The notes beneath the pieces are model-generated. The model was not told where the DNA came from. It was given only the letters and a program-made list of their open reading frames with translations, and made no database searches. Shown here one piece after another: positions 28,062-28,473 of a DNA stretch of 31,024 bases (positions are counted from its first letter, which is position 1; the number at the start of each line of letters is the position of its first letter). Source of the stretch: Escherichia coli (GTDB lineage: Bacteria > Pseudomonadota > Gammaproteobacteria > Enterobacterales > Enterobacteriaceae). The stretch lies in the NCBI RefSeq assembly GCF_003334305.1, contig NZ_QOWS01000035.1. One strand, 5' to 3'. The position numbers were made by a program, and so were the translations under genes.

Positions 28062-28422
28062 TAGCTTTGCTCCTGGATGTTTGCCAGAGAAAATCTCTGG
28101 AACTCACTTCACTCCTCCAAACGGAGAGAGCGTCTTAATTACGGTGAGCAGAAACAAGCCAGAATATAAAAGAATAATCTTAGCGTTCTGTCACCGTCTA
28201 CGCAGGGGATTAAGTTTCTTGCGAAACTCCTGCGGTCTTCGACGGAGGCCTGGATAGGCCAGGCTCCAACGAACAAATCTTTTCTATCCGTCGCTATTCA
28301 ACTTGTGGCGGCGTTGGCTTCCTTCATTCGCACCAGTCACATAGTTAGCTATGCTCCTGGCGACTCACTCAGTTGCCGCCTTGCCACAACCCGAATATCT
28401 CGGATATACGTCTGCATTAAGC

Positions 28423-28451
28423 ATTATACGTGGGGGTAAGATTGTAGACAA
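28423..28451 (-). promoter_or_regulatory. candidate rplJL-rpoBC promoter at the distal end of the rplJ leader
   Basis: Minus strand TTGTCT, 17-nt spacer, TATAAT (plus-strand attata at 28423-28428), just downstream of the rplA stop. An overlapping alternative (TTTACG-17-TACAAT) exists, so the exact promoter is not resolved. Confidence 0.5.
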
Positions 28452-28473
28452 AATCACCGCCCACGTAAAGGCA

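Follow-up and report, generated by a model that had tools for sequence, protein, structure and literature searches.

The rplA–rplJ spacer of Escherichia coli: anatomy of the rplJ leader, its predicted L10(L12)4 recognition hairpin and a dimorphic ERIC repeat

The window analysed here is a stretch of 31,024 nucleotides (nt) of Escherichia coli DNA (assembly GCF_003334305.1, contig NZ_QOWS01000035.1) whose minus strand carries rplK, rplA, rplJ, rplL and rpoB in that order. This report concerns the spacer between rplA and rplJ, exactly 412 nt on the minus strand (28062–28473), which a first-pass annotation of the DNA had described as a 412-nt leader region; the ends of the two open reading frames (ORFs) and the RefSeq annotation, which places the identical spacer of E. 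coli genomes between the genes for L1 and L10 (rplA and rplJ), confirm this. The spacer is 100% identical to that of many complete E. coli genomes, E24377A among them. K-12 BW25113 differs from it by two bases inside a 142-nt segment that contains an ERIC repeat (98.6% identity), and a 61-nt K-12 stretch printed in a Term-seq table differs at two bases, both within the ERIC. Because of the identity to E. coli and the flanking rplA and rplJ genes, the region is very probably the 5′ leader of the E. coli rplJL–rpoBC transcription unit, with the L10(L12)4 site; the ORFs and the RefSeq annotation place it in the 5′ untranslated region directly before rplJ–rplL. The locus is the same as that of the K-12 rplJ leader, with which it shares the promoter, the 373-nt leader and the kink-turn and UAA site; there is no difference of substance, and the window represents another strain with the longer of two alleles.

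The K-12 operator for L10(L12)4 is the subject of earlier work (Johnsen 1982; Christensen 1984; Climie and Friesen 1987/88; Iben and Draper 2008; cited in PMC3616713 and PMC4538822), according to which L10(L12)4 represses translation via a kink-turn and a UAA site in the leader (PMC4538822, PMC3616713, PMC10931766). The recognition elements are a kink-turn-type GA/GA motif and a loop with unpaired adenosines (Fu et al. 2013, Yakhnin et al. 2015; PMC3616713, PMC4538822). For comparison, rplA–rplJ spacers were fetched from 80 Enterobacterales species and a consensus fold was computed with RNAalifold on 78 distinct leaders. In the spacer of the window, GA at 28237–28236 faces GA at 28198–28197 beside a CGCAGG/CCUGCG stem (the C-stem), with C 28196 following; these features are invariant or nearly so in the 78 leaders, the C-stem being at least 97% conserved. 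The sequence UUAAU at 28213–28209, opposite a single A, forms an internal loop in which two adenosines stay unpaired, is present in 76 of the 78 leaders and corresponds to the CUUAAu of the Rfam family RF00557 (L10_leader). The apical stem, which carries a GCAA loop, covaries, with compensatory changes in four of its five pairs. The first-pass annotation had stated, without localizing it, that the leader carries the L10–L12 autoregulatory site; the GA/GA motif, the UUAAU loop, the covariation and the Rfam core bear this out and point to 28241–28191 as the L10(L12)4 site, with a predicted kink, 130–180 nt upstream of the rplJ ATG, binding itself being known from the literature.

A covariance-model scan for the L10 leader family, as proposed in the first-pass annotation, finds the expected core at 28241–28191 and falls short of the gathering score. 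The alignment of RF00557 is confined to the core of the hairpin (CGAAGACCGCAGG...CUUAAU...CCUGC, in a search of 146 nt), and there the binding core of this Firmicutes-type leader (CGAAGAC.GCAGG...CUUAAU...CCUGC) matches almost base for base. The 66-nt anti-terminator/terminator part of the model is skipped, and its absence accounts for the low score; in contrast to the terminator-bearing leaders, the expression platform in E. coli differs and acts on translation. A second family, RF02858 (Arrc08, ‘Actinobacillus sRNA 08’), aligns to 28079–28320 (E 7e-9, 38 bits against a gathering score of 219) and shares hairpin A (Table 1), the L10 site and the long-range helix; Arrc08 is evidently the homologous rplJ leader of Pasteurellaceae. 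The Rfam L10_leader model misses the founding E. coli example, while two families filed as small RNAs (sRNAs), Arrc08 and V_AS5, match the leader and its ERIC insert. At the gathering threshold, the Rfam scan returned nothing in the leader. Subthreshold matches to the S15 leader, c-di-GMP-I and Ocean-VII families overlap the rplJ start with poor scores and were taken as chance.

The site was also compared with its counterpart in 23S rRNA, helices 42–44 (E. coli 1041–1118), using the sequence of 1039–1121 from rrnB of E24377A. The 5′ strand AGAC.GC(C)AGG and the 3′ strand CUG..(C/U)(G/A)AG(U/A)CGG are similar in the two RNAs, and UAAU also lies 5′ of a stem in both. Identities amount to 12 of 19 positions against 23S 1039–1057 and 20 of 35 against 1092–1121. 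The mRNA differs in that its basal strand pairs with a distant downstream segment and not within a local helix.

The predicted site belongs to a 3′ part of the leader, ∼220 nt long, that is highly conserved across Enterobacterales. In the RNAalifold structure 96.4% of cells are paired and 21 pairs are compensatory, which none of 500 shuffles reaches, and slid registers give ∼40–45% pairing. The individual helices are listed in Table 1. In the consensus fold, the partner of CGGUGACAGA, which follows the GA motif on its 3′ side, is UCUGCUCACCG, ∼45 nt downstream, and the long-range helix encloses an A/U-rich linker. A local basal kink-turn stem of three to four pairs would compete with hairpin A and with the long-range helix, and GUGAAGUGAG at 28112–28103 is able to pair with CUCAC of the downstream strand of that helix. 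Because all of these segments are invariant, covariation does not choose among the long-range, basal and GUGAAGUGAG pairings.

Table 1. Features of the rplA–rplJ spacer and the adjoining genes, in window coordinates and in the order of transcription
Feature	Position	Strand	Basis or remark
rplA ORF	28474–29178	minus	stop TAA = 28476–28474
P1 (classical PL10) −35 hexamer TTTACG	28469–28464	minus	promoter scan
Inverted repeat ACGTGGGCG / CCCCCACGT (as RNA ACGUGGGCG / CCCCCACGU)	28466–28428	minus	covariation, 79-leader alignment
P2 promoter-like site TTGTCT-17-TATAAT	28451–28423 (−10: 28428–28423)	minus	promoter scan; E. coli only
P1 −10 hexamer TACAAT	28446–28441	minus	promoter scan
Recorded K-12 transcription start	28434	minus	RegulonDB v10.5, 373 nt upstream of rplJ ATG
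Dimorphic 142-nt segment, replaced by 21 nt (GCTAACGAAAGTTAGCAGCTA) in the short allele	28425–28284	minus	megablast and alignment
ERIC/IRU repeat, 124 nt	28408–28285	minus, same orientation as rplJ	consensus match, long imperfect hairpin
RNA end cluster in AAAAG↓AUUUG	28281–28278	minus	Term-seq 3′ ends (K-12), 5′ end (O157:H7 EDL933)
Hairpin A, GGAGCCUGG-CCUAU-CCAGG(C)CUCC	28267–28244	minus	5/9 pairs compensatory, 95% of cells paired
L10(L12)4 recognition hairpin (predicted)	28241–28191	minus	motifs, covariation, Rfam alignment
Long-range helix ACGGUGA-CAGA / UCUG-C-UCACCGU	28197–28186 with 28152–28141	minus	11 pairs, 99.9% of cells paired
Variable hairpin	28132–28110	minus	6/7 pairs compensatory
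Invariant block GUGAAGUGAGUU, then hairpin CCAGAGA-UUU-UCUCUGG (28100–28084)	28112–28084	minus	6/7 hairpin pairs compensatory, block at least 90% conserved
Shine–Dalgarno AGGAG and rplJ ATG	28074–28070, 28061–28059	minus	invariant in alignment
rplJ ORF	27564–28061	minus	start ATG = 28061–28059

Several points weigh against reading these elements as an L10(L12)4-controlled leader. Neither the long-range helix nor the kink-turn stems vary among the leaders, which puts them beyond confirmation by covariation. No conserved pairing that sequesters the Shine–Dalgarno sequence was found in the 78-leader consensus fold; the search gave only short invariant complementarities, between AAGA and a coding-region UCUU, which RNAalifold pairs, and between CCUGG in hairpin A and CCAGG at the ribosome-binding site. 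The L10_leader alignment scores 13.7 bits (E 2.8) against a gathering score of 44 and appears only in the 146-nt search, with no match to this family in the window-wide scan at the gathering threshold or in a 651-nt scan at E ≤ 10. The similarity of the site to helix 42 of 23S rRNA exceeds chance only modestly, 55 of 2,000 shuffles doing as well. Finally, the experimental claims for K-12 are taken here from secondary accounts.

The transcription start lies at the other end of the spacer. Two σ70-like sites were found at the rplA-proximal end, where shuffled versions of the region contain 0.6 sites of such quality on average. P1, with 9 of 12 matches to the consensus, has two hexamers at a spacing of 17 nt (28469–28441), and the start recorded for rplJ in K-12 (RegulonDB v10.5; supplementary file 6 of PMC10469882) corresponds to the seventh nucleotide past its −10 hexamer. 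An explicit scan finds a −35-like TTTACG or TTTACC at this place in 51 of the 80 leaders. A −10 hexamer follows in 45 of these 51, always at 17 nt, and is TAnAAT or TATTAT in all but one (TAGAAT 17, TACAAT 11, TAAAAT 10, TATTAT 4, TATAAT 2 and TAGACT 1). Alignment by eye of the 29 leaders outside the anchored scan shows TTGAAA or TTGAC. at −35 with the same kind of −10. Scan, conservation and recorded start agree with the first-pass annotation that a promoter adjoins the rplA stop and leaves about 370 nt of leader; its start ‘near 28420’ was correctly put at the rplA-proximal end, ∼14 nt away from the K-12 position. The Cappable-seq and SMRT-Cappable-seq supplements hold no entry for rplJ or these coordinates.

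P1 is bracketed by an inverted repeat, with arms at 28466–28458 and 28436–28428, that spans its spacer, −10 hexamer and start site. In the promoter-end alignment, which holds 79 leaders, six of nine pairs show compensatory changes, a degree of covariation reached by none of 500 shuffles and far above that of slid registers. Across Enterobacterales a U–A of E. coli, for instance, is replaced by C–G elsewhere, Serratia having CUUGGGG/CCCCAAG, and a U-rich run follows the repeat in most genera. Both arms are present only in read-through transcripts from the rplK promoter, and the repeat may for this reason serve in the attenuation or ending of rplKA transcripts.

Between the promoter and the conserved 3′ part lies the ERIC/IRU repeat, overlooked in the first-pass annotation, which accounts for a third of the leader and reads TATATCC...GACGGATA. 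Wilson and Sharp's consensus for E. coli ERIC (∼127 nt, as printed by Delihas, PMC2759123) matches 28408–28297 with 77% identity over 113 nt (E 1.5e-19). The element forms one long imperfect palindrome, a hairpin that covers leader positions 68–189, and a 168-nt stretch containing it folds at −60.4 kcal/mol (z = −4.8; none of 200 shuffles folds as well). Further diverged copies of the 142-nt segment occur in E. coli at a median of three and up to six places per genome (E ≤ 1e-3), other ERIC copies being intergenic within transcription units (iscX–pepB, yjbE–yjbF and aspS–nudB). The consensus match, the several copies per genome, the hairpin and the absence of the element from ∼1,780 E. coli genomes identify it as an ERIC/IRU repeat. 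It has in common with other members (Sharples and Lloyd 1990; Hulton 1991; Wilson and Sharp 2006; PMC2759123) an imperfect palindrome of ∼125 nt, the match to the consensus, a transcribed intergenic site, several copies per genome and presence or absence between strains. It differs in being diverged (about 70–77% identical to the consensus), in lying immediately downstream of a promoter and in a GUCGnCAG/CUGnUGCGA signature without counterpart in the consensus. Since the element is missing from one third of E. coli genomes and from most related genera, it is dispensable for control by L10, and these 124 nt of the leader are unrelated to that control. No paper linking ERIC with the rplJ leader was found in the open-access literature; this copy is probably already included in ERIC catalogues.

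The same repeat explains the subthreshold match of RF02818 (V_AS5, Vibrio) at 28287–28415 (30 bits against a gathering score of 96). V_AS5 matches other E. coli ERIC copies better (44–53 bits), with subthreshold matches to all three ordinary copies examined (L003:1489–1613, L004:1487–1610 and L005:1487–1610); filed as an sRNA, it corresponds in E. coli to a repeat element. CssrA (Shigella) matches two of these ordinary copies (L003 and L004) and Ysr49 (Yersinia) one (L004); all three ‘sRNA’ families look like transcribed ERIC-type repeats.

The ERIC-bearing segment is dimorphic within E. coli. Of 5,426 complete E. coli genomes searched by megablast with the spacer as query, 5,421 gave a match, 3,639 of them over its full length, and about one third (∼1,780 genomes, including O157:H7 and uropathogenic E. 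coli (UPEC) strain 536) have a short allele with a spacer of 291 nt. When the two alleles are aligned, the first 48 and the last 222 nt are identical and enclose 142 nt in the one and 21 nt in the other, the junction lying inside the P2 hexamer (TAT/AAT in the long allele, TAT/GCT in the short). In the short allele of O157:H7 (L001:849–869), a 6-bp hairpin, GCUAAC-GAAA-GUUAGC, stands in the place of the ERIC, and the ERIC-less leader of Raoultella has a similar one (GCUAAC-CCCG-GUUAG) at the equivalent place; the long-allele counterpart of this hairpin is degenerate, and its 5′ arm now belongs to the TATAAT hexamer. A TA target duplication would be expected at the ends of the ERIC (TATATCC and GACGGATA), but the short allele offers no clean empty site for comparison, as 17–19 nt upstream differ too. 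The short allele is not the product of a clean excision; an old polymorphism, a secondary loss and an import are the candidate origins.

ERIC-like sequence occurs in the same spacer in Pluralibacter, a Klebsiella species, Winslowiella, Erwinia mallotivora and E. psidii. In Pluralibacter gergoviae the copy is full-length and occupies the same site (126 of 160 positions identical, both flanks included), and in Tenebrionibacter intestinalis this copy recurs but has lost 58 nt internally (82 of 99 identical), indicating that the insertion is older than E. coli. For Citrobacter freundii, the alignment (63 of 84 aligned positions identical, with many gaps) suggests that a decayed remnant is retained. 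The copies at this locus in different genera share the GUCGnCAG/CUGnUGCGA signature. The spacer of Erwinia psidii (L053:798–1500) is 703 nt long and holds three ERIC-like copies, two of them near-identical and in tandem; the third is closer to the consensus and overlaps the place of hairpin A in other leaders.

RNA ends have been recorded directly beside the element. A Term-seq 3′ end at MG1655 4179776/4179777 is present in all three condition lists with scores of 9,600–11,500, in one list above that of the rplL–rpoB attenuator (PMC7815308, supplementary file 1), and is not discussed by Adams et al. (PMC7815308). It maps to 28281–28280, 4–5 nt past the ERIC hairpin, in the context GGAUAGAAA↓AGAUUUG. 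For the short-allele strain O157:H7 EDL933 a 5′ end is recorded at 217 nt before the rplJ ATG (PMC10469882 supplement), equivalent to 28278. The paired 3′ and 5′ ends suggest that the RNA is cut endonucleolytically at AG↓AUU and then trimmed as far as the ERIC hairpin. AG↓AUU fits the preference of RNase E. A search of the Term-seq table for the ERIC motif gave no informative result on 3′ ends at ERIC copies generally. The EDL933 data also list 5′ ends at 110, 108 and 103 nt upstream of the ATG (PMC10469882 supplement; window 28171–28164), within the A/U-rich linker UUAUUCUUUUAUAUU, which separates the L10 site from the long-range helix's downstream strand; these could be processing sites or a weak internal start.

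The anatomy, conservation and covariation observed in the leader, and the observed identity and dimorphism of its ERIC, can be combined with L10(L12)4 binding and translational feedback as carried over from the K-12 literature. Transcription very probably starts at ∼28434 from TTTACG-17-TACAAT beside the rplA stop, ERIC repeat folded into one long hairpin makes up most of the initial ∼150 nt of the RNA and the conserved 3′ ∼220 nt would form the regulatory core. When in excess over free 23S rRNA, L10(L12)4 would bind to the kink-turn-type hairpin at 28241–28191, whose likeness to its rRNA site is modest in sequence, and binding would lower translation initiation at the rplJ ribosome-binding site 130–180 nt downstream, presumably through a shift in the fold of the intervening conserved helices, a path from binding to the ribosome-binding site that we infer. 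A 2024 review considers the mechanism unresolved, the site being far from the ribosome-binding site (PMC10931766). The rplJ leader and its control by L10 are already known and the interpretation of the first-pass annotation is correct, so that confirming this textbook case of ribosomal-protein feedback by rRNA mimicry adds little. What goes beyond the textbook is confined to the insertion of an ERIC, the dimorphism of this insert within E. coli and the adjoining RNA ends.

Two other accounts of the leader RNA fit the data poorly. In one, transcription would end prematurely in the leader, the mode of control in Bacillus subtilis, in place of control at translation; the U-rich tract at 28177–28163 does align with the terminator tail of L10_leader, and Adams et al. 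(PMC7815308) noted 3′ ends in ribosomal-protein leaders. However, no G+C-rich hairpin precedes this tract, where a terminator scan was negative, and the Term-seq lists give no 3′ end between 4179776 and 4180221 (the ERIC-proximal end to the rplJ coding region), so that transcription attenuation in the leader is unlikely; together with the translational control described for E. coli in the literature, this leaves the termination account very little probability. The sole terminator-like match, a weak 5-bp stem at 28473–28458 within the promoter region, was rejected. It is still harder to credit that the leader encodes a small protein or an independent sRNA gene of the V_AS5 or Arrc08 kind, which appears extremely improbable. 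The first-pass statement that the leader has no ORF is literally incorrect, as mechanical sense-strand ORFs of 30 codons (GTG, 28365–28457) and 45 codons (TTG, 28139–28276) exist, and correct in substance. Related leaders contain ORFs of at least 30 codons in 65 of 80 cases, at varying places, and the two ORFs of the window begin with GTG or TTG at unconserved positions, one lying in the ERIC and the other crossing covarying RNA helices in which the length changes between species are not multiples of three; both were rejected as genes. As to an sRNA, the subthreshold matches to two ‘sRNA’ families are all that speaks for it, but V_AS5 matches every ERIC copy tested and Arrc08, with its alignment to the L10 site, is no more than the homologous leader.

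Control at translation from a P1 transcript is retained here, and the remaining alternatives concern the 5′ part of the leader. With 10 of 12 matches, P2 comes closest to the consensus in the region, the ERIC-side allele having converted an ancestral TTTCTG-like hexamer into TATAAT, and in long-allele E. coli it could be the main rplJ promoter or a major one, with a start at ∼28416. The sole start tabulated for K-12 belongs to P1, though, and TATAAT is confined to the E. coli long allele, the short allele having TATGCT and other genera GTTCTG or TTTCTG at this position; a leading role for P2 is decidedly unlikely. The conserved and mapped rplJ promoter is P1, TTTACG/TACAAT, and not the stronger-looking TATAAT site, a preference based on one RegulonDB value and on conservation. 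For annotation, the by-product is that the mapped, conserved promoter differs from the best consensus match of the spacer. More can be said for the ERIC as a working module, whose hairpin would block 3′ exonucleases after a cut at AAAAG↓AUUUG, yielding an abundant ∼154-nt RNA from PL10 transcripts and/or a protected 3′ end of rplKA read-through mRNA and altering the amount of full-length rplJL–rpoBC mRNA in long-allele strains. The strong 3′ end just past the hairpin in all three K-12 lists, the EDL933 5′ end only 2–3 nt downstream of it, the same-site elements of Pluralibacter and Tenebrionibacter and the preservation of pairing by stem changes between the copies of different genera agree with such a module. 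However, the spacer lacks an ERIC in one third of E. coli genomes and in most genera, and several lineages have only decayed remnants, as expected of a neutral insertion; the 5′ end in EDL933 shows that cutting at this site does not need the element, and the K-12 3′ end is attributable to either processing or termination. On balance the module is possible but unlikely.

A more ambitious joint claim would be that the ERIC has been kept at this site since before the split of Escherichia, Pluralibacter and Tenebrionibacter, that the two alleles are old and that the element is an RNA-end-forming module, the source of a stable leader fragment of ∼154 nt, of a 3′ hairpin that protects rplKA mRNA or of both, which also supplied a consensus −10 and makes output allele-dependent; taken as a whole this is rather improbable. 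If it were true, strains with the long allele (K-12, B1 and enterotoxigenic E. coli) and with the short allele (O157:H7 and B2 UPEC) would differ in the balance of L11/L1, L10/L12 and RNA polymerase β/β′. The leader of an essential, very highly expressed operon comes in two forms in E. coli, with an ERIC beside a strong RNA 3′ end, and alleles that differed in expression would offer a natural handle on the action of L10(L12)4 at a distance and on the role of ERIC in mRNA.

Elsewhere in the window, three Rfam matches above threshold were noted. The sroH RNA (plus strand, 17570–17730, 201 bits) and a TPP riboswitch (plus strand, 11777–11877, 74.8 bits), both above their gathering scores, are ordinary known features of the region. 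The third match, to P26 (‘Pseudomonas sRNA P26’), lies in the rplL–rpoB spacer (27066–27127, minus strand, 74.5 bits), the known attenuator region. A very strong Term-seq 3′ end (MG1655 4180995) falls in the rplL–rpoB spacer region that P26 matches.

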